A stretch of 64,000 bases of DNA, taken from positions 3,037 through 67,036 of IMG/VR virus record IMGVR_UViG_3300047160_000446. One strand, 5' to 3'. Source of the DNA: a virus. Taxonomy: Duplodnaviria; Caudoviricetes. Within the stretch, counting starts at the first letter, position 1, and every line of letters begins with the position of its first letter. The notes under the pieces are model-generated. The model saw only the letters and a program-made list of their open reading frames with translations, made no database searches and had not been told where the DNA came from. The position numbers and the translations under genes are program-made. This document shows, piece after piece, positions 7,992 to 64,000 of the stretch.

Positions 7992-8501
7992 ATGCGCAAA
8001 TCCACCAATCGCAAAGTATGGCGTAAAGAAGAGCCCGCCACCCTTCTTGTTCTTGCAGGAAAGCAACCATTAGATAAGAAAGGGGCTGATGATGCAATCT
8101 TTCCTCTACTGCTGCATGTCCAGATTGCAGCTGAAGAAGGTTTGTCAGATTATACGTCCACGCGATTAATCACGACATGGCTTGCAACAAGCCACGATAT
8201 CGCCGAACACTTTAATATTGATTGGTTGATGAAAGTCACGGAAGACGCCGCAGAATCTTGCATGGCAGAACAGTATGCCGCAGATGAAAAGCATGTAAAC
8301 ATGAGTTTTGGGACGATTGTTAAGCTTCGTAAAATGATCCAGGAACTTCTTGTCGTTTTGCCAAGCATTCAGGCCGAACTATTTGTTCGCTTTTATAAAG
8401 ACGCTCTTCACAAGTGGGATGATGCGATGATCGAAGGGAATAAGCTACGCGCTGAAGAAGATGCGAAAATTTCTGTTGACAGCGACGCGGACAATCCTTA
8501 G
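7992..8501 (+). CDS. hypothetical protein
   Basis: 169-aa ORF. Confidence 0.7.
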   Translation: MRKSTNRKVWRKEEPATLLVLAGKQPLDKKGADDAIFPLLLHVQIAAEEGLSDYTSTRLITTWLATSHDIAEHFNIDWLMKVTEDAAESCMAEQYAADEKHVNMSFGTIVKLRKMIQELLVVLPSIQAELFVRFYKDALHKWDDAMIEGNKLRAEEDAKISVDSDADNP

Positions 8502-8504
8502 AAT
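8476..8504 (+). promoter_or_regulatory. sigma70 promoter
   Basis: TTGACA-17 nt-TAGAAT. Confidence 0.8.
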
Positions 8505-12184: not shown

Positions 12185-12559
12185 TTATTCATATTTATCA
12201 TATTTGATTTCTGTAACTTCGGACATTGATTCGTGCGCTTTGTTTCTGTCGCCGTTCGCCTCTCCTTTGTCAGAATACATCTTAGAAAGAGAAGGAACAT
12301 TGTCTTTGTCTGGAAGGACAAATGCAAATGCTGAATGGCTTTTTGTTCGCATCATCAAGTTCCATCCTGAGTCTGATGGAGGGTCTTTTATGTTTCCGTC
12401 CAAGTCAAAGAAACAAACAGATTCTTTTCCCTGGACGGAAACAAGTGCAACAATTGGATACGGTCCAACAAAATCAAACGCTACGATTCTCGCGTCATTG
12501 CCGTTAGATGTGCATACCGGGCGTCCTTCTTTGGCTTCTCTCAATATGAAGTTTTTCAT
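12185..12559 (-). CDS. phage hypothetical protein, paralogue of 13523-13903
   Basis: AKEGRPVCTSNGNDARIVAFD vs TKAGMPVCTKSGNSVRILAFD. Confidence 0.8.
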   Translation of the reverse strand: MKNFILREAKEGRPVCTSNGNDARIVAFDFVGPYPIVALVSVQGKESVCFFDLDGNIKDPPSDSGWNLMMRTKSHSAFAFVLPDKDNVPSLSKMYSDKGEANGDRNKAHESMSEVTEIKYDKYE

Positions 12560-12581
12560 GTTTTCACCTTGTTGATATTGA

Positions 12582-12830
12582 TTACATTATTTTGTTTACG
12601 ACTTGATTAACTTCGTCTTGCACTTGATCCGAATTGTCATAAAGATTCTTTGCCCAAGCGACGATTTTGTCGTCTGTTTTATTTTCTGTTTTGTCCGCGA
12701 AATGTTGCGCTAAAGTAAACAAGAGATTTGCAAGTTCCTTCTCTGCAATAGCATTAAATGCGATCTTGAAGATTATCGAAATCAATGCCTTGCATATAAG
12801 TTTGATCATAAATTCCGCAATGAATATCAT
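12582..12830 (-). CDS. small membrane-associated lysis-region protein
   Basis: Hydrophobic N-terminus, KTENKTDDKIV motif. Confidence 0.65.
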   Translation of the reverse strand: MIFIAEFMIKLICKALISIIFKIAFNAIAEKELANLLFTLAQHFADKTENKTDDKIVAWAKNLYDNSDQVQDEVNQVVNKIM

Positions 12831-12832
12831 AT

Positions 12833-13462
12833 TTATTCCAATAGCCGACTAGCGGCAATGACTAATTCGTTAAGAACATGATACTCGTTTCGAGGCTTGT
12901 CCTCGAAGCCTATAGCAATAATGCCTAGAAATTCCTTGCTATAGCCTGCTGGGACGCTTATGGCACAAACATATTTTATTTTATTATATACTGCTGCTTT
13001 ACTGCTTAAAACTGTGGTTTCTGGATTATATTCCGCGCAATACCTTTCTCCCCTTATAAGCCTGACGGTTCTAGCATTATCTGCGGCGGATGTTTCGTTG
13101 AATAGCGTATCATCAAAACCTTCGACGGACATATCATGTTCGCCGCCAACAGTGTAATACGCTATCTTCCTAGCATCAGCTGAAATGTTGACAAGGGAAA
13201 TGGAGATAATCCCAGCGTTAGTGTTTTTATTTAATCTCTGTCCAACCTCCTCAAAACGTTTAGCGTTAATATGTGGTTTTAATATCCGTTCCGCTAGTTG
13301 CGGGCGAACTATATCCCAACTAGAATAAACCATGGCAAATGTAGTTGAAATAACCGTGAAAGAAACCACGGTAAAAAAGTTCTTCCAACTTCTACTAGAC
13401 CACACAAGCAGCCATTTAAGACTTTCTATTCGGCTTTGATTCTCTTCTATAGACTTGGCCAT
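12833..13462 (-). CDS. holin with T4 gpT-like architecture
   Basis: 209 aa, one N-terminal TM (about aa 26-48), large C-terminal domain with two Cys and CAISVP...FLGIIAIGF; next to the peptidase. Confidence 0.6.
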   Translation of the reverse strand: MAKSIEENQSRIESLKWLLVWSSRSWKNFFTVVSFTVISTTFAMVYSSWDIVRPQLAERILKPHINAKRFEEVGQRLNKNTNAGIISISLVNISADARKIAYYTVGGEHDMSVEGFDDTLFNETSAADNARTVRLIRGERYCAEYNPETTVLSSKAAVYNKIKYVCAISVPAGYSKEFLGIIAIGFEDKPRNEYHVLNELVIAASRLLE

Positions 13463-43244: not shown

Positions 43245-43470
43245 GTGTCACTCCTTTTGCCTTATCTTGGCGTTGGGTTTCGCTTGCCGTGGAAGCCTCT
43301 GATTGAAGCTTTTCTTTCTCTACATCTTCAGGCGCTAATGGCAAACCTTGATCAGTTTCAGGTCCGCCGCCTGCTTCTACATTGCCAAACATTCCCATTG
43401 TTTCATCTTCGGAACTTGCCGGGACGATGTCCAGGCCCTCAAAACTTTCCATGAATTTTTCATTAGCCAT
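43234..43470 (-). CDS. small acidic hypothetical protein
   Basis: 78-aa ORF overlapping both neighbours. Confidence 0.65.
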
Positions 43471-46400
43471 TGCTGAATTCCACGATTACGCGAGCTTTAC
43501 GCGTTCTTGTTCCCTTAATAACTTCCACCACTTTGAACTTGCCTCCGCGATTCATTACTACTTCTTCTTCGTTCGGGAATTGGCTGATATCTTTAACACT
43601 AACCGCCTTGCTTCCTTTAGGAACTCGAATTTCCATGATCGCGGAATTATCTCCTCTTGCGAAGTTTTTAGCTTCTGCCTCGCTTGAAGTGGTAGAGCTA
43701 AACGATTTGTCTTGCCAGCTGTCGCCAGGTTTCAGTTTGTCCAAGAACGACTTGTCAGAGATACCACGGAAAACTGTCATATCTTCTTTAGTCGAAGCCT
43801 TTTCAAACAGTTTGTCCATTTGCTCAACATCTTTCTTGTGTTCTTTCGGAACTCCTTTTCCAGACCTAAGAGCCGGACCTAAATCCCTGAACATTGCACC
43901 GGTATATTCTTGCATAGCCTGCTTCTCTTTGTCAGTCATATTTACCGGCGCGGCAGAGATATGTACAGCTTCAGATTTCTGTTTCGGGGTTTGTTTCTTT
44001 TCCTTCGCTGCTTCTTTCGGAGTTTCCGCCTTAGGAGTTTCTGCCTTCGGTGCTTCCGCTTTCGGTGCTTCCGCCTTAGGAGATTCTGTCTTCGCGGATT
44101 CTTTCGGAGCTTCGGACGTTTCCTCTTTCTTAGACTTGACTTCGGAAATATTCTTGCCGTTGAACTTGCCGCCCATTCCGCCAAGTACTTCGCCTCCTGC
44201 ACCGATCATAACCGGTTGGCCTTTCTCTTCTTGTCCGTTCGGCTTAACAGTTATCCAAGCATCTCCGACTTCATTCTGTTGTCCTTGAAAGGGCTGATTC
44301 AAATCTCCAGTGTTAATCCAGTTCTTCAACTGGTCAAGCGTTATTTCATGCAGACTGTCTAAACCTTGCCAATCCGCATCATAAGCTTTCCTGTAATAAC
44401 GTTCTGCTTGTTGCGCATCGTCGAACCCAAGCATTACTTTGTGTTCATCGAACTCGCCAGTTTCAGGACACTTCTGATTGATCACAAAAGCTTTGTCGCT
44501 TGCCAGATTCGGACCAACGAACACGTCAAGTTCATCGCCGTCTGCTGCCTTCGTGTTCTTCACAAAGCCATAATGACACGGCATCATCGTTCGCCATTCA
44601 TTACCGGCCATGTCTTTGCCCGCCCTTACCGATCCTTTGTAGTTCTCAATCCCAAGCCTCATGCCTTTATAGGGCATTTCCGGAAGCTTGGCGTTGAATC
44701 CGCCAGCAGGAACATGCAATTCATCAGGCGTTGCCTTGCGCGGATTGTAGTAGTCTGGTTGTCCCTGCTGAACCGTTTCAATCAGGCGCTCAATCATTTC
44801 CCTCAATCCGGGTTCGGCGATGGTGTTTGCCAGTTGTCCCGGAGAAGATACGCTTGCGGGAGAATCTTCTTCGACTTCATCTCCTTCTTTCGCCATCTTC
44901 TGTTTGGGCTGTTCATTTCCTTTTCCGCTAGAATCTTTGTCCGGCTGCTTCTCTGCCTGTTGCGTTTTGGCTCCGGCTGTTTCTTCTTTCGCTCTAGCCT
45001 CTTGGAATCCCATTTGATTCTCCGGAGACTGGCCGAAATCGGTTTCTGCTTCAGCATCGCTGATATTCGCATAGCCTGACAGTTTGTCATTGCGAACACG
45101 GGCGCGTTCTTCATCCGGAGCAATCACGCCGCCATTAATGAGGATTTGACCGGTTTCGGCTTCAGTCTTATTAATGTTGGCAAGTTCTTCAGCGGTTTTG
45201 CTATCAACCGGGTTCCATGCGATTTCAGTTTCAAACGGCTCCAGATTATATTTCGGAGCAATCTCGCTTCTAATTGCTAGCAAATGGTGGCGCTGCAATA
45301 GCGGCGTGCATTCGTGCGTCTGAATCGTTTCAAGCTCTTCATGATAAGACTTGGTCTCTTGGTCGCCACTGGAATTGAATCCGCCTGGAGACGTTCCCAA
45401 AAGCTTGACAGCCGGAACCTTCGAAATCCCTGAAACAATCTGATATTGCCCGAAGATAACCGAATCAAGATCGGAAAGGCTAATATCGAATTGCTCCACT
45501 ACGTCACCAATACCAACAACGCGAGTTTGGTAATTGTCGCGGAACATAACGGATTGCATCATCCGCTTTGCGAACTCTTTCGGGCGCGCGGCGACCTTGG
45601 CCAAATCAACATGAAGAACGTTCAGTCGTTTCGACATCGCCAGCTGCGGCGCTTCATTTGCTGTTCGTTCTGCTGCATATACGCGTTCGTAAATCCGCTG
45701 AGTCAGCGGGATTCCACCGAAGATGTAAGTCGGTTTCAACACGTCAGCAGGCACAGGGCCGCGATTAATTACAAGGTGCGTTCTGTGATAGCGTTTGCCG
45801 GAAATAATCCACCATTCCGGCTCATAGAAATGTCGGTTCGTTTGATCCGCACTGCCGCGCAAAGATAACATTGGCATCATCCAATACGGATCAATTTGTT
45901 TCATGCCTTTGTAGCTGCCCGGAATCACGCCATCGGGATTGAATGGCTTTTCGTAATATTTCGGATCGGTTGATTCAACATCGAAAACAGTAACGCGAAT
46001 TCCGAAGATATTCGTGAATCGAACAAACTGTTTCATTTGTTCGATAACGCCCATCTCCAAATCTATCTTTTTCAGGTCCGACAATGCTTCATCAGGAACT
46101 TCTGTCCCATCAGTCACATTCACATCGTAGCCGTTTCGAACAGCGTCTTCCCCCGGCATTGTGCAAGCTTTGTCAACAAGCCAATGCTGGGCGATGATTG
46201 CGCACGATTGATATCCGATAAAGCCTTGCGAATTGTACCATTGTTGCAAAGCTTCGGGAACAGTGTACGGATTTCCTTGATCAAAACTCTTGATCAAGTT
46301 TTCTCCGCTTCCGCTGATGTCGTCCATCGCGTATTTGACGGACGTAGCAACAACGGACATTACCGGATCATTCTCAAAGTCTGCGGCGTCCATGACGAAT

Positions 46401-46636
46401 CCATCGCCAACAAGCGGGATGTCGTCAAATAGTTCTGCAATCGGAAAGTCGGTTACAGGACGAACTTTAAACGGGTTTTCATCGGACCATGACGCAATCG
46501 CTTTTGCCGTCGATGGGCGATAGATATCCATGTCGTAGATATCTATTTCTTTTTTCTCTTGCGTTTTTACTTCTTCTTTTTGATTGGCCTGGATATTTTT
46601 GTTTATCCACTGCCAGAATCGTTCCGAAAGTTTCAT
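43463..46636 (-). CDS. portal protein (DUF1073-like) fused to pyrophosphatase-like domain and ADP-ribosyltransferase
   Basis: Portal: [45 protein letters not shown]; PPase-like: [21 protein letters not shown]; ART: VFRG, FSSTT, EEEVV. Confidence 0.9.
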
Positions 46637-48805: not shown

Positions 48806-48931
48806 CCTCTAAATTGATTTTGTTGTCATTATACTGCGCGCCGGCCTATTTGTGCGCCGAACTTTTGATCCCGCCGCCATTTCTCGAAAAGGTAGTGGTC
48901 CAGCCGCGCAGGCTGGTGGCCGTCAGGCCAA

Positions 48932-49206
48932 AAGGTTACAAGATTTTGCCGCCCTGGAGGTTGTAACCTTTTGTGTAACCTTTTTTCTTGTTGTAAAACA
49001 TAGACTTACACCAGAAGGTTACAAGGTTACAAGGTTACAAAGATTTTTAATGGATTAGTAAAATTAATCCTTATATATATTAATGGGAAACGCCGAAATT
49101 TCTTGTAACCTTGTAACCTTTCGATATTCGCCATGTAGATCAAGGACTTGGGGCACTAAAAAAGGTTACAAGGTTTGAAAAGGTTACAAAAATTTCTGTA
49201 ACCTTT
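48932..49206. repeat. array of 11 AGGTTACA motifs in both orientations around an AT-rich core (putative replication origin)
   Basis: + copies at 48932, 49015, 49023, 49031, 49162, 49180; - copies at 48961, 48974, 49103, 49111, 49198. Confidence 0.85.
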
Positions 49207-49240
49207 GTGCATTTTGGCCTGTTTACGCCATTTTGGCGCG

Positions 49241-50935
49241 TTAGAAGCTCTCCGCCTTACGTTCGACGTCCTCGCTCTCTACACCTCCATCGGGCCATTT
49301 TATGCCCTCATAGAAGGTCCATGCCCGGATTGGGACGCCTTCAACTTTCACCACTTTCGGCTTATTCTCAGAAGCCCCAAGTGAAACGAGATAGTTTGCA
49401 AGGTGTTTATTGTTGATCGGTCTTCTTGTGACATCGTTCAAAGCAACAAGGAGCGCACTTGTCGAGATATAAACAGCGCCTTTGTTTCTGCCTTGAGTAA
49501 CCGTCATCTTTTCGACATTGTGCAAAATCTCCAGAATATGAGCCTCCAAATCACTATCCGAAATCGTTCCGCGATTATTCTTCATTTCATAATCAGAGAA
49601 CGCTTTTACTTGTCCGGCAACTTCTGCGACGAACCGTTCGTAATCATACAAACTATTCTCTTGAATCCAAGCCTCACATTCGGCCATCATTTGCCAAAAA
49701 TCTGACTCGAAATTCTCGAAATCAACCTTAAAATCCGCGCTCCAATCAGGCTGTCCGTTTTTATCTGGCAATTGCCCGCAAAATATCGGATAGAATCGCC
49801 TGTTGCCTGTTTCATCGCGCTGCAATCCTTCATATTTATTACCGTCCATCGTCATGATCCACTGACGCGGCTTATCCTGCGAATCTTTAAATTTGTTATC
49901 GTACGAATCGACAGTAACAGTTACAAACTCCTTCGTTCTGTTCATGTCGGAAGATAACAAACCCGTCATCTCAGGAATGGAAGCAATTACCGAAGTCCCG
50001 GTAATGTTCCGCAGAAATTCTTTAGCGTTTCCGCTTGGATCATATTGAACGGGCTTTGCGTTCGTGTCGCCTAGGATGTATTGGCAAATCAATCTTACAA
50101 AGTGTGACTTGCCGCACAATTGCGTTCCGATAAACGACGCCACAATCGGAGCCATACAACCGGGATACATAATCCGGCAATACAAGGACAACCAGAAATA
50201 TCGTGACATGTTGCGATTAAGTTCTGTATCGAAACACTTGAACATCTTAACGAACTGTCCTTCAATTCGCGGCAATCCGTCCCATTCAGGAACTTTTCTT
50301 TCCATACGCTTGACAAGGGAATTCCATTTGCTGGCGTATGAATAGGAAATAATCGCTTCTCTAACTGCTCTCACAGATTGGGCGCGCAATCCGAAAGCCG
50401 CATAAACCTCAAGCCACGGAACGAAGTTATAGAAGCCATCGATTTTCTCGCCCGTATGATCAACTTCCCGGCCAGAGAACATATCGAAATGTGGACGTTC
50501 ATCTATATCGCCGAACAGAAGATCAAGAGCATAGATGCGATTGCGATCCGTACTTTCAGGCGAAGAAATGAACTCTTCGCCCTTCTTCTTCCAGATAATT
50601 TCCGGAAAATCCACCATCTGATTCTTAACAAGAGAGCGGGCGCGACGGACAAGGTCCGGTTCTTGGCGCAGTTCATCAACTAGTTCGCCTTCCTGCTCTC
50701 TCTTTTCTACGATCTTTATGTTCTTGCGTCGAACTGTGTCGTCTTTCTTAGCGAATATATCTTCCGCTTCAGATGGTGCGGATTCGTTAAACAAAGGAAT
50801 AGCGGATTCAATTTCTGGAGCGTTAATTTCCTCAGCGGTCGCCGCAGGTTTTGCAGTCGTTGCTTTAGGCTTCCTTGTCCGCTTAGGCGCTTTGTTCTGT
50901 TCCTCTTTAGGCAAATTCTTATCGTTATCAGACAT
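49241..50935 (-). CDS. VirE-like P-loop ATPase/helicase
   Basis: FIGTQLCGKS Walker A, PEMTG, DETGNRRFYPI. Confidence 0.88.
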   Translation of the reverse strand: MSDNDKNLPKEEQNKAPKRTRKPKATTAKPAATAEEINAPEIESAIPLFNESAPSEAEDIFAKKDDTVRRKNIKIVEKREQEGELVDELRQEPDLVRRARSLVKNQMVDFPEIIWKKKGEEFISSPESTDRNRIYALDLLFGDIDERPHFDMFSGREVDHTGEKIDGFYNFVPWLEVYAAFGLRAQSVRAVREAIISYSYASKWNSLVKRMERKVPEWDGLPRIEGQFVKMFKCFDTELNRNMSRYFWLSLYCRIMYPGCMAPIVASFIGTQLCGKSHFVRLICQYILGDTNAKPVQYDPSGNAKEFLRNITGTSVIASIPEMTGLLSSDMNRTKEFVTVTVDSYDNKFKDSQDKPRQWIMTMDGNKYEGLQRDETGNRRFYPIFCGQLPDKNGQPDWSADFKVDFENFESDFWQMMAECEAWIQENSLYDYERFVAEVAGQVKAFSDYEMKNNRGTISDSDLEAHILEILHNVEKMTVTQGRNKGAVYISTSALLVALNDVTRRPINNKHLANYLVSLGASENKPKVVKVEGVPIRAWTFYEGIKWPDGGVESEDVERKAESF

Positions 50936-52505: not shown

Positions 52506-52533
52506 TTGACACTTTAAACTAATTGCATAGAGT
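52506..52533 (+). promoter_or_regulatory. possible sigma70 promoter (first of tandem pair)
   Basis: TTGACA-16 nt-TAGAGT. Confidence 0.5.
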
Positions 52534-52570
52534 GCTGTTGCATCCTCATGACAACGCAATCAGAAATCGT

Positions 52571-52599
52571 TTGACACGCGCTGAACTACATCATAGAAT
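52571..52599 (+). promoter_or_regulatory. sigma70 early promoter
   Basis: TTGACA-17 nt-TAGAAT. Confidence 0.85.
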
Positions 52600-60707: not shown

Positions 60708-62159
60708 ATGTCCGCCAAACAAGAACTTGAGAAGGAGGCCGCCGAACTGGCGGTTTCTTTGTCGTCATACGAACAAGCCATCAGCAAGGCAAATCGAAAA
60801 GAATTGAAAGCTGGTCAAAAAGCTGCTATCGATGGCATGGCGTCTTTCATGCTTGACCCTGAACGCAAGACCTTCATCATGTATGGCTATGCAGGATCGG
60901 GCAAGACTACTATTGCGGAAAGAATTGCAGACTTCTCAAAGCCTCTTTATATCTCGTTTACTAACCGGGCTTGCGGAGTTCTCCGTTCGAAGGGCTGTGT
61001 TCCGGCAATCACGATGTCCAGTCTTCTTTACAAGAATTCTGAGGTCTACGACAATCCGGCAGAGGGCGAAATATGGGAAGCTTATTGCGAGTTCCATCAA
61101 GACGAACCGCCGCGTCATGATGTTGAAGAGGCTCGCAATGTAAGCGAATTTCTTAAGATGGAATCTGACGAACTTATCAATGAGTTTGGAAAAGGATTGG
61201 TTCTTAAGAAGCCGTCCGGAACAACTCTATCAATCGAGAAGACGGACGAAGAAGTGAAAGCCTTCCTTTACAAGCTGCATTATGGAAGCGAGCCGCCGAT
61301 GGGGCATAATCCGCCGCATGGCTTTGACGTCATTGTTGTTGACGAATCATCGATGATCGGCAAAAAGACCAAGCCTCAGTTTCAAAAGCTTGTGGATATG
61401 AACTTCAAAATCATCGCCATCGGAGACCCGTTTCAGGTTGAGCCGGTGGACGACGAACCGTTGTTCCCGTCCAGGGAATCGGCGGCGCATGCGCTGCTAA
61501 CAGAGGTTGTCCGTCAAGGGGAACTGTCCGGAATTCTGGAGCTTGCTACATACATCCGCGAAAACATCGGTGTTATTCGCAAGATCAATTCCGATGCCAA
61601 AGACGTCCGTTTTAAGAGCTTCGATAATGTGGACTGGACTGAAGCGGATCAAATCATCGTTTGGAAGAACTCCACACGACAGGAAATCAACAAAGAATAT
61701 CGCGCGGCGATGGGATACCCTCGTGTTCATCCGGTTGAAGGAGAGAAACTTCTTTGCATCCGTAACAATCCGGAACAGAATTATTTCAATGGTGAATTAT
61801 GGTGGATACATGCGATAAACGAGATGACGGAGCGCGACGCTATTCTGTTGCTTCGAAATTATGCGCCTGGAGATGATTCGTTGCACCAGTCACTTCGCAA
61901 AGAAGTCATCGAACGTCAAAGTTTGCATTATCTTTACAAGGACGACGTCAAGAGCTTTTCTAGTTTCGTTTACGGATACGCGATGACGGTTCACAAGGCT
62001 CAAGGTTCCGGATGGCCACACGTTATTGTTGTTGATGAATCGAAGATGTATCAGAACATGCTTGAAAAGTTCGGAAAGCCTGATGCGGATGTGAGCGCGG
62101 CGCGATGGAGATATACCGCTGTGACGCGTGCGGAAAAAGAATTGATCATTGTTAAGTAA
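60708..62159 (+). CDS. Dda/RecD-like SF1B helicase
   Basis: GYAGSGKT, VVDESSMI, GDPFQV, YAMTVHKAQGS, YTAVTRA. Confidence 0.92.
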   Translation: MSAKQELEKEAAELAVSLSSYEQAISKANRKELKAGQKAAIDGMASFMLDPERKTFIMYGYAGSGKTTIAERIADFSKPLYISFTNRACGVLRSKGCVPAITMSSLLYKNSEVYDNPAEGEIWEAYCEFHQDEPPRHDVEEARNVSEFLKMESDELINEFGKGLVLKKPSGTTLSIEKTDEEVKAFLYKLHYGSEPPMGHNPPHGFDVIVVDESSMIGKKTKPQFQKLVDMNFKIIAIGDPFQVEPVDDEPLFPSRESAAHALLTEVVRQGELSGILELATYIRENIGVIRKINSDAKDVRFKSFDNVDWTEADQIIVWKNSTRQEINKEYRAAMGYPRVHPVEGEKLLCIRNNPEQNYFNGELWWIHAINEMTERDAILLLRNYAPGDDSLHQSLRKEVIERQSLHYLYKDDVKSFSSFVYGYAMTVHKAQGSGWPHVIVVDESKMYQNMLEKFGKPDADVSAARWRYTAVTRAEKELIIVK

Positions 62160-62169
62160 AGGAAAGCAA

Positions 62170-62376
62170 ATGATTTATTTTGTATTAGGTCTTTTGTCTG
62201 GGCTATTGCTCGCGTTTGTCCAAGTGTTTCTTTATAAGAAGGTTCTTGTGATGGACTCCAAAGATAAAAGAAGTCAAAAGATTTTAGGAGACTACTACAA
62301 AATCATTCCGGACGGCGAGTTTTATTATTTGACTTATATGGCCAATAAAGCCAAAGTACCAGAAAAGGAAGATTGA
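62170..62376 (+). CDS. small membrane protein
   Basis: N-terminal TM; AAAGGA RBS. Confidence 0.65.
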   Translation: MIYFVLGLLSGLLLAFVQVFLYKKVLVMDSKDKRSQKILGDYYKIIPDGEFYYLTYMANKAKVPEKED

Positions 62377-62377
62377 C

Positions 62378-62620
62378 ATGTCCGTTGAAATCCCGGTAGA
62401 ATTTGACAAAGCAGACGATGAAATTATCGTCCCGATGAACGCGGAATCTCTTGTTCGGTTTTCTATGATAGTTATGGAAGCCTTGGATGCTTGTCCAGTC
62501 AGGCCGATTCCTGCAATGCTAAAAGAAGAACTAATCCATGCCTTTGCCGTTTCATATGTTACTGCTATTAACGAAGCAATCATCGAAGAAGTTCCACAAC
62601 TACAAGGAAATAAGGAATGA
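62378..62620 (+). CDS. hypothetical protein
   Basis: 80-aa ORF. Confidence 0.65.
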   Translation: MSVEIPVEFDKADDEIIVPMNAESLVRFSMIVMEALDACPVRPIPAMLKEELIHAFAVSYVTAINEAIIEEVPQLQGNKE

Positions 62621-62859
62621 AAGAACAGATGCTAAAAGGCTGCCCGTTCTGCGGCGGAAAGAAATGTCTAGAGTTGGATAACGTCGGCTACGACATTCAC
62701 CCGAATTACGCAGTTTGCTGCGACAATTGCGAAACAACAGGGCCGATCAAACCGACAAAGATTCAAGCTATTCGCGCTTGGAATAATCGCCTTGAAGAGA
62801 AACGCATCCAGAAGGCCGCCTTTAACGCTGGTGTTCGGAAAGGTATCAAAAGAGGCTAA
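62617..62859 (+). CDS. Lar-like restriction alleviation protein
   Basis: LKGCPFCGG...VCCDNC...AIRAWNNR. Confidence 0.75.
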   Translation: MKEQMLKGCPFCGGKKCLELDNVGYDIHPNYAVCCDNCETTGPIKPTKIQAIRAWNNRLEEKRIQKAAFNAGVRKGIKRG

Positions 62860-62861
62860 TA

Positions 62862-63290
62862 ATGAAACGTCTAATATCCCTTGTAGCCGCCCTATGCACG
62901 TCGCAAGCATTCGCTCTAGGCGTTGCAGACAAGAACGTAAAACAGGACAACATCTATACAACGATTTGCGCGCATGCTAGCTGGGCGAAGAAGAACCGCG
63001 CGCCGAACAGTTACACGGATCGCATCAAACAGGAACAGTTCAAGGCCAAGAAGTTGAAAGGCCATTACAAGGACTACATTCTTGATCATTGGCTTTCCGT
63101 CAGCTTAGGCGGCGATGTCATGGCGCGCAATAACCTAGTCATCATGACACCGCAAGATGATCGCTTCAAGAACGGACTAGAACGGAGGATCAAGAAACAA
63201 GTCTGCCAGAAGAAGCTAACGCTTGTAGATGCGCAGCAACTGTTTTTGAAGTGTTCTAGTGTTGCGTGTTTGAAACAGATTGAGAAATAA
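62862..63290 (+). CDS. signal-peptide-bearing HNH-like protein
   Basis: MKRLISLVAALCTSQAFA signal; LDHWLSVSLGG...NNL...KNGLERR. Confidence 0.7.
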   Translation: MKRLISLVAALCTSQAFALGVADKNVKQDNIYTTICAHASWAKKNRAPNSYTDRIKQEQFKAKKLKGHYKDYILDHWLSVSLGGDVMARNNLVIMTPQDDRFKNGLERRIKKQVCQKKLTLVDAQQLFLKCSSVACLKQIEK

Positions 63291-63293
63291 ACA

Positions 63294-63320
63294 AAAGCCC
63301 TAGAAATAGGGCTTTACTTT
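63294..63320 (+). terminator. intrinsic terminator ending the early arm
   Basis: AAAGCCCTA-GAAA-TAGGGCTTT then ACTTTT. Confidence 0.85.
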
Positions 63321-63341
63321 TGCCTGCCGTTTTGCGATACT
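63313..63341 (+). promoter_or_regulatory. possible sigma70 promoter
   Basis: TTTACT-17 nt-GATACT with TG extended -10. Confidence 0.45.
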
Positions 63342-63381
63342 AATTACATCAAGAACGAACCACAGAACGGAGAGAACTGAA

Positions 63382-63561
63382 ATGAAAACTAACCGCCTGC
63401 AACGAGTTGTTAATGCCTCTTCCAGCGATATTTGCAGTGAAAACGAATCTACTGCAAAGATTGGTAGTTGGATTCTCGCTTTTGCTAGCATGCGTGCCGT
63501 AACTGCTGATGGTGAAGCGTGTTTATATGAAAGAACGATGGCCGGAATCATCTGGTGCTAA
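63382..63561 (+). CDS. 59-aa hypothetical peptide (below ORF-track cutoff)
   Basis: Read manually as MKTNRLQRVV...AGIIWC; GGAG RBS. Confidence 0.5.
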   Translation: MKTNRLQRVVNASSSDICSENESTAKIGSWILAFASMRAVTADGEACLYERTMAGIIWC

Positions 63562-63582
63562 CCATCAAGGAAAGAATAAAAA

Positions 63583-64000
63583 TTGCCCGGCCATTGAGCC
63601 GGGCGAAATCCCTTATCACCAAAACGATAGGACGCAACGAGAGGAATTACTAGATCGGGTGGGCGCTGTCTGGTTAAGTCTTCGCGAGTGGCGGACGGGC
63701 GGGCCGGCGCTGCGTTTGGCATCCGGTTAGACCTGAGACGCTTGCAGCGCTAGGGCGACGCAAAGAGGCTTAATTTTCCAAACAGCGCCCATAGAGGGCA
63801 GAAGCAGAATCGTATTTTGCAGACCCGAATCAGCAAGACGAAAGGAACGATTCGCTTCTGTTAGGTTCGATTCAATAGCGCGCCGTAAAATCCGCATAAG
63901 AAATTAAAAACAACGCTACCGAATCGAAGAGGTCGGAATCCCGACAAGGCGGCTGTGCCCTTAGCGTAAAACGCTGAGTTCGGAACTCCTAAACTGAAGA
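63583..64000 (+). ncRNA. candidate large structured non-coding RNA, 3'-truncated by window edge
   Basis: No credible ORF; at least 8 complementary helices, several nested (see findings); G-U pairs favour the + strand. Confidence 0.55.

Follow-up and report, generated by a model that had tools for sequence, protein, structure and literature searches.

We report a candidate noncoding transcription unit in a soil phage genome. Judged from its predicted transcription signals and fold, it would be an autonomous, leftward unit, driven early in infection by the host polymerase and yielding a stable, closed, multi-arm RNA of ~515 nt; the unit is an orphan of moron-like character, and we give this reading about an even chance. 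The window analysed is a stretch of 64,000 nt, corresponding to positions 3037-67036 of a 67,036-bp IMG/VR virus record, and would show the 3' four-fifths of the unit, which would sit in an accessory island between a Dda-like helicase gene and the replication module (Table 1). The phage appears to be an uncultured soil myovirus of 66.9 kb with distant ties to the PB1, Myosmar and Wifce groups. It codes for DNA polymerase III alpha, SNF2 and VapE-like helicases, a DUF3383 sheath protein and a portal protein. Its order of genes from Dda helicase through gp031-like and exonuclease to pol III alpha is shared with Serratia phage MyoSmar and Burkholderia phage Karil-Mokiny-1, and tblastn matches of the gp031-like protein extend to PB1-like Pseudomonas phages and Wifcevirus. 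The distance to these relatives is large, with the polymerase 45-57% identical and the helicase at most 34%. Elsewhere in the window, at 43463-46636 on the minus strand, the portal is fused to inorganic-pyrophosphatase-like and ADP-ribosyltransferase domains (strong Pfam matches PF06381, PF18823 and PF03496), and an iteron/AT-rich region at 48865-49265 is the strongest GC-corrected folding outlier of the genome on both strands, which fits an origin-like element away from the RNA candidate. Four relatives (L017, L019, L036 and L025; Myosmar-, Wifce- and BcepF1-like) carry a gap of ~380-405 nt right after pol III alpha, at ~12530-12965, that holds no ORF of at least 60 aa.

The last 98 bp of the record are a copy of its first 98 bp. 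The repeat is an overlap left by assembly of a circular or permuted genome and marks no biological end. The genome thus effectively measures 66,938 bp, circular or permuted, and the point where the original prediction placed the region, the "end of the early arm", is an assembly break. An independent JGI soil contig of 3,056 bp (L005) matches the circularised genome exactly over its whole length, from window position 61203 to the equivalent of 64258, and because it spans the junction exactly, the sequence is contiguous across the break. Sequence past the window end is given in contig numbering (L002, with position 1 at the contig start). Since the circular assembly runs on into the contig start, the gene-free stretch is longer than the window shows: retrieval of the downstream sequence confirmed the expected extension past the window, and the stretch totals 1,176 nt across the circular junction, from the stop of a 59-aa ORF (63561) to the start of a gp031-like gene (contig position 836), making it the longest noncoding stretch of the genome. 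Contigs from four soil DNA runs are identical to the window, with no variants and with patchy coverage of 63600-64000, and no RNA run is among those listed as holding the sequence. The claim that 63583-64000 is noncoding held, as 63562-64000 contains no credible ORF. ORFs in the whole 1,176-nt stretch have no Pfam or PHROG match, are absent among called proteins, and have codon log-odds of ~0 (0.12 for a 73-aa plus-strand ORF) versus ~0.1-0.4 for most real genes.

Table 1. Features of the candidate unit and its surroundings (window positions unless marked otherwise).
Feature	Position	Strand	Details
Lineage-specific accessory block	62149-63561	+	75-aa, 80-aa, Lar-like restriction-alleviation (80 aa), 142-aa and 59-aa genes
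Bidirectional terminator-like hairpin	63294-63315	both	follows 142-aa gene
59-aa orphan ORF	63382-63561	+	GGAGAG RBS; JGI-called gene, singleton cluster; convergent with RNA unit
Candidate ncRNA, 3' 426 nt	63575-64000	-	5' 89 nt past window at L002:99-187
Predicted intrinsic terminator	63575-63604	-	hairpin GCCCGGCT-CAAT-GGCCGGGC (63604-63585), then AAUUUUUAUU (63584-63575)
P1, 3' strand UCGUUGCGUCC	63630-63640	-	pairs with RNA nt 4-14 GGAUGCGGCGA; 11 bp, 3 G-U
P2, 3' strand, 8 bp	63650-63657	-	partner window-equivalent 64055-64062 = L002:153-160; mean pair probability 0.97
GC-rich branched domain	63660-63791	-	14-bp outer stem 63778-91/63660-73, then 5-, 8-, 7- and 6-bp helices
Long hairpin	63799-63860	-	7 + 7 bp, apical 4 + 3 bp; pair probability 0.99-1.00; both strands
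Long hairpin, uninterrupted 16-bp stem (3 G-U)	63866-63928	-	plus strand: only 8 + 5 bp; contains GGTTCGATTC
Three-way junction	63935-63989	-	10-bp stem (2 G-U) around two 5-bp hairpins
98-bp overlap	63903-64000	strand-neutral	identical to contig positions 1-98; inside candidate RNA
Proximal sigma70-like promoter	contig 222-194 = window 64124-64096	-	TTGACG-17-TATACT, 10/12
Distal sigma70-like promoter	contig 515-487 = window 64417-64389	-	TTGACG-17-TAGAAT, 10/12, AT-rich UP-like flank

The hairpin at 63585-63604 is read as a minus-strand intrinsic terminator because a T-tract is present only on the minus side: the 8-bp stem (7 GC) runs into AATTTTTATT on the minus strand, and its plus-strand side continues as GAAATCCC, with no T-tract. 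A genome-wide scan for strong hairpin-plus-T-tract sites gave ~3 clean sites in the 67-kb genome, the other two of which stand at gene ends. The terminator at 63604-63575 has no minus-strand gene to end; upstream of it, in the minus sense, are the structured region and then two promoters, 0.5 and 0.8 kb away. It is the proposed 3' end of the candidate RNA, and the end of its T-tract is 14 nt from the stop of the 59-aa ORF. A promoter-to-terminator bracket on one strand, the arrangement of an autonomous sigma70 unit, is thus found at the level of consensus matches, and both promoters resemble the early-operon promoters of the phage (TTGACx-17-TAGAAT/TATACT style). Promoter matches of 10/12 number 24 genome-wide, mostly inside ORFs, with ~0.4 expected here by chance, and because matches of such quality are not rare, they are supporting and not decisive evidence for a minus-strand unit. 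Scoring used the sigma70 consensus, from which the promoter grammar of the host may differ. Promoter-like sites of the form TTGACA-N17/18-TAGAAT also recur at 52506-52599, 62373-62402 and 8476-8504, and stand in tandem at the head of the plus-strand early operon, which suggests that TAGAAT is a phage-typical -10 variant.

The whole candidate RNA corresponds to L005:2373-2887 on the minus strand, running from a predicted start at the equivalent of 64089 to the end of the T-tract at 63575. Its 515 nt fold with an MFE of -198 kcal/mol, a centroid nearly identical to the MFE structure, and a z of -6.05 versus shuffles. Against 514 same-length, GC-corrected background windows the minus strand comes first (rank 0, residual z -3.09) by a narrow margin, as three background windows reach z ~-3.0 after GC correction, so that among the genome's own windows the region belongs to the top 1% in GC-corrected stability and is no lone outlier. 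In the predicted fold, P1 and P2 close a junction with six stem-loop arms, comprising two small hairpins, a three-way junction, a 16-bp hairpin, a 14-bp bulged hairpin and a branched GC-rich domain (63660-63791, locally 60% GC versus 45.7% for the genome). The 5' strand of P1 lies at window-equivalent 64076-64086 (L002:174-184), and its 3' strand sits immediately before the terminator region. The closing duplex between the 5' end (first 20 nt) and the 3' end has -19.1 kcal/mol, a value reached by only 0.4% of random genomic 20-mers (p ~0.004), and the best 5' partner among ~390 start positions scanned falls exactly at the predicted transcription start. When folded inside the 808-nt transcript from the distal promoter, 163 of the 175 pairs survive, P1 included. 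The structure model is built from one sequence, and many of its helices are perfect Watson-Crick palindromes that form equally as DNA or on either strand.

Short motifs were also noted in the candidate RNA. The anti-Shine-Dalgarno-like CCUCU occurs four times on the minus strand (window 63644, 63768, 63797 and 63932), with two or more copies in linkers predicted to be single-stranded, and CUGCA, which holds the palindrome UGCA, occurs four times, once in a hairpin loop; enrichment of either pentamer is not significant after correction for 1,024 pentamers. By eye, CCUAAC...UAUGG and the 5' GCGAAAGC resemble an 11-nt receptor and GAAA tetraloop, a reading rejected for its non-canonical geometry.

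Comparison of the whole window with Rfam 15 gave no match at the gathering threshold, in agreement with the original statement that no named class could be assigned; the classes covered include GOLLD, ROOL, OLE, HEARO, raiA, group I/II introns, RNase P, 6S, tmRNA and pRNA. Permissive scans of 63200-64000, L002 1-900 and L005 2100-3056, the last spanning the junction, gave sub-threshold noise only. The best resemblances, both on the minus strand within 63576-63654, are to anti-hemB (RF02837; 28.0 bits, gathering 49.5) and a Betaproteobacteria toxic sRNA (RF02278; 18.7 bits, gathering 50). A short 3' sRNA of the anti-hemB type was rejected, given the sub-threshold score and no plausible promoter by eye. 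ARAGORN found no tRNA or tmRNA in the 64-kb window, L002 or L005, and a tRNA/tmRNA-like element was likewise rejected: the supposed T-loop-like motif GGTTCGATTC is one strand of the 16-bp helix, the criterion being a 5-bp T-arm around GTTCRANYC. A group I/II intron was discarded for want of any Rfam intron match and of any interrupted gene, the flanking genes being complete and unrelated, as was an iteron origin, CRISPR or ToxI-like array, the only repeats being two-copy chance repeats of 10-13 nt with no tandem arrays.

Homologues were sought by several routes. By blastn, neither half matched any of 50,697 phage records. IMG/VR searches by helicase and by polymerase found no close relative; a polymerase alignment returned 26 relatives in IMG/VR at 45-57% identity, of which 15 are at least 90% complete. 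Neither blastn nor nhmmer matched the noncoding DNA to the loci fetched from these 26 phages, its leftmost 697 nt (holding the candidate RNA) have no BLAST match to their whole records, and their syntenic sites hold no noncoding gap of at least 350 nt. A covariance model of the GC-rich domain (R1), run on the same 26, found only itself as control, at 181 bits. A polymerase-alignment search of genome contigs gave no relative. Searched by alignment, the gp031-like protein led only to MTx and MyoSmar. As protein routes to flanking DNA, the helicase has a best match of 34%; for the gp031-like protein a word search gave no match and HMMER one of 46% at best. A stem-pattern scan of IMG/VR gave 14 matches, all by chance, and a 20-mer scan of JGI metagenomes returned only L005's own contig. 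The new multi-domain phage RNA class proposed originally is therefore not supported, as related phages, phage records, IMG/VR and JGI metagenomes gave no homologue, and a new class cannot be established because covariation cannot be tested without one. On its sequence, the candidate belongs, as an orphan, to a known kind (phage-encoded ncRNA, here in a moron-like unit) and is no demonstrated new class. We think it unlikely that the 515-nt (or ~808-nt) RNA is the first member of a new class of large early phage RNAs that are expressed autonomously and adopt a closed multi-arm fold, that it acts in trans on the host as decoy, scaffold or self-assembling particle, and that it appears as an orphan through sparse sampling of its soil-phage lineage.

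The surroundings of the unit are lineage-specific as well. The small genes of the accessory block are absent from all 26 related phages, and the neighbouring proteins are singleton clusters among 5.8 billion proteins. Because the relatives have the Dda and gp031-like genes adjacent, the 2.6-kb block of small genes and RNA unit is best read as a moron-type insertion. The terminator-like hairpin at 63294-63315 may end the plus-strand early operon and back up the minus-strand stop. Within the block, the 142-aa orphan protein (62862-63290, plus strand) has an N-terminus, MKRLISLVAALCTSQAFA, that looks signal-peptide-like by eye, no homologue among the 5.8 billion proteins, and a weak match to colicin/pyocin HNH DNases around DHWLSVSLGG (E 0.006, below cut-off).

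Such a site might also hold a non-functional or DNA-level spacer, either acquired DNA in decay or a regulatory stretch that separates two plus-strand operons, in which the inverted repeats act, if at all, as DNA or protein-binding sites and the promoter and terminator matches are incidental or weakly used. We regard this as improbable without being far-fetched. The region is an orphan with no conservation in the collections searched, at a hypervariable insertion site; most of its helices are perfect palindromes, able to fold on either strand; its folding is extreme and not unique in the genome; and its strand asymmetry is not significant. However, a high-quality intrinsic terminator without a gene is hard to ascribe to chance, the pairing of 5' and 3' ends coincides with the predicted start, and neither iterons nor tandem repeats occur in the region, the likely origin being instead the iteron array at ~48.9-49.2 kb, which is the top structure outlier.

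Transcription itself could instead be what matters, with the convergent leftward unit serving as an insulator or antisense brake through polymerase collision and the RNA as a by-product; in this way it would keep transcription of the early operon and 59-aa gene from running on into the replication genes, or vice versa. The unit stands exactly between two plus-strand operons, with no plus-strand terminator between the 59-aa and gp031-like genes, and in phage LUZ19 an antisense promoter has been proposed to act in a comparable way (PMC10914365). We nevertheless doubt this explanation and rate its chances as low, since the early operon already ends at the bidirectional terminator at 63294-63315 and insulation needs no 0.5 kb of closed, stable structure or paired termini.

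The original prediction was of a large structured RNA on the plus strand, continuing rightward as a separate transcript or, in a variant, as a long 3'UTR of the 59-aa gene. Every helix it listed is present in the sequence, and all except a hairpin at 63976-88, the only one to differ, are in the plus-strand MFE structure. The helices in that structure are 63583-91/63598-606; 63661-69/63782-90; 63674-82/63765-73; 63706-14/63743-51; 63799-805/63854-60 with 63807-13/63847-53; 63866-73/63921-28 with 63876-80/63914-18; and the small hairpins 63932-36/63941-45 and 63960-67/63971-78. In the shuffle comparison that had been suggested, the 418 nt beat all 100 dinucleotide shuffles on either strand (z -3.68 plus, -5.05 minus), and the 515-nt span read on the plus strand does so too (MFE -177.6, z -3.48). 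Compared with the same genomic background as the minus strand, however, the plus-strand fold is unremarkable (z -1.48, rank 28/514), and the distal segment beyond the proximal promoter lacks structure when read as plus (z -0.93). A few helices gain G-U-paired extensions on the plus strand alone, as had been argued, yet overall that strand forms 22 fewer pairs (153 versus 175) with half the G-U pairs (15 versus 29). The fold on the minus strand is 20 kcal/mol more stable than the plus fold of the same span; a strand call from this gap was rejected, since strand differences of this size occur in 54 of 257 windows and correction for keto skew leaves a z of -0.6. As for a separate plus-strand transcript, the first listed hairpin is a terminator for the opposite strand (63604-63575), and the possible upstream promoter was not found: no plus-strand sigma70-like site of at least 9/12 occurs in 62800-64000 or L002 1-1000. 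No plus-strand terminator was found anywhere in the 1.2-kb region, and read-through from the 59-aa gene would then transcribe the plus strand; the sole transcription signals are the minus-strand terminator and the two minus-strand sigma70-like promoters, and a functional plus-strand RNA is accordingly very unlikely. The lesson of this case is that the strand comes from transcription signals, not from inverted repeats read by eye.

That the leftward unit codes for a small protein, such as a 97-aa ORF at L002:456-163 that begins 24 nt after the predicted start of the distal promoter and has a hydrophobic stretch, is highly improbable, as this ORF lacks a Shine-Dalgarno sequence (neighbouring genes carry AGAGG or GGAGAG), has codon log-odds of -0.02, no family match and no place among called proteins, would leave a 490-nt 3'UTR, and is of a size of which about one is expected by chance in six frames of 1.2 kb (rough estimate).

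In our preferred reading, the autonomous leftward unit, host sigma70 polymerase would start at TTGACG-17-TATACT, with a second start possible at TTGACG-17-TAGAAT, and leftward transcription would halt at the intrinsic terminator. The 515-nt product would fold closed, its 5' end pairing with the pre-terminator segment through P1 and P2 and six arms leaving the junction, a shape that would suit a stable, trans-acting RNA. Early expression would be expected because both promoters are host-type. The unit would have been acquired along with the accessory genes, including the Lar-like gene, at the variable site. Its architecture and its neighbours (small orphans and the Lar-like restriction-alleviation gene) lead us to conjecture a host-takeover or anti-defence role, as a protein/RNA decoy or scaffold, and the island setting beside a restriction-alleviation gene makes such an RNA-based role testable.

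A second leftward RNA of ~200 nt is possible at L002:262-480 (minus strand; window-equivalent 64164-64382). Its promoter would be the distal TTGACG-17-TAGAAT site. This distal 219-nt segment is structured only on the minus strand (z -2.81): a long hairpin opens at nt 2, and toward the 3' end another hairpin, CCTCGCGGCA...TGCCGCGAGG, runs into CUCCUUUUCUCCC and could act as a leaky terminator. Since the segment has its own fold and this possible terminator, two tandem leftward RNAs are conceivable.

To our knowledge, few large structured phage RNAs have been described, GOLLD and ROOL among them, and what these RNAs do is not known. If the preferred reading is correct, the unit would add a further, unrelated example of a large phage RNA, made from a protein-free 0.5-0.8-kb unit with host-type promoters in a virulent-type soil phage. 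Like the moron units and ncRNAs mapped by ONT-cappable-seq in Pseudomonas phages, it has its own sigma70-like promoter and intrinsic terminator, and its presumed reliance on host RNA polymerase recalls the sigma70-like promoters of the PB1-like phage 14-1 (PMC10914365). Like morons, it is inserted between conserved genes in a variable region, whereas morons usually bear a protein gene and here the entire 0.5-0.8-kb unit is noncoding. In the part of the mapping study drawn on here, the Pseudomonas phage ncRNAs are mostly UTR-derived or antisense, and the examples given with a size are ~120-210 nt (PMC10914365); the candidate is longer and antisense to no gene. Its last ~80 nt share with anti-hemB and the toxic sRNA a CU-rich UUCCUCUC, a small hairpin and a GC-rich terminator, on the same strand as the promoters, yet the scores are far below gathering, the likeness is mainly in the terminator, and the candidate is six times longer. 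With the "ornate" RNAs GOLLD and ROOL it has in common that it is phage-borne, several hundred nt long and multi-helix (PMC12286853). It differs in having no covariance-model match to them even at E up to 10, and in its setting, as GOLLD and ROOL often adjoin tRNA islands in phages and prophages (PMC12286853) and this phage has no tRNA. Finally, GOLLD and ROOL are defined by covariation over many members and include pseudoknots, whereas the candidate is a single sequence that folds mostly into simple hairpins.
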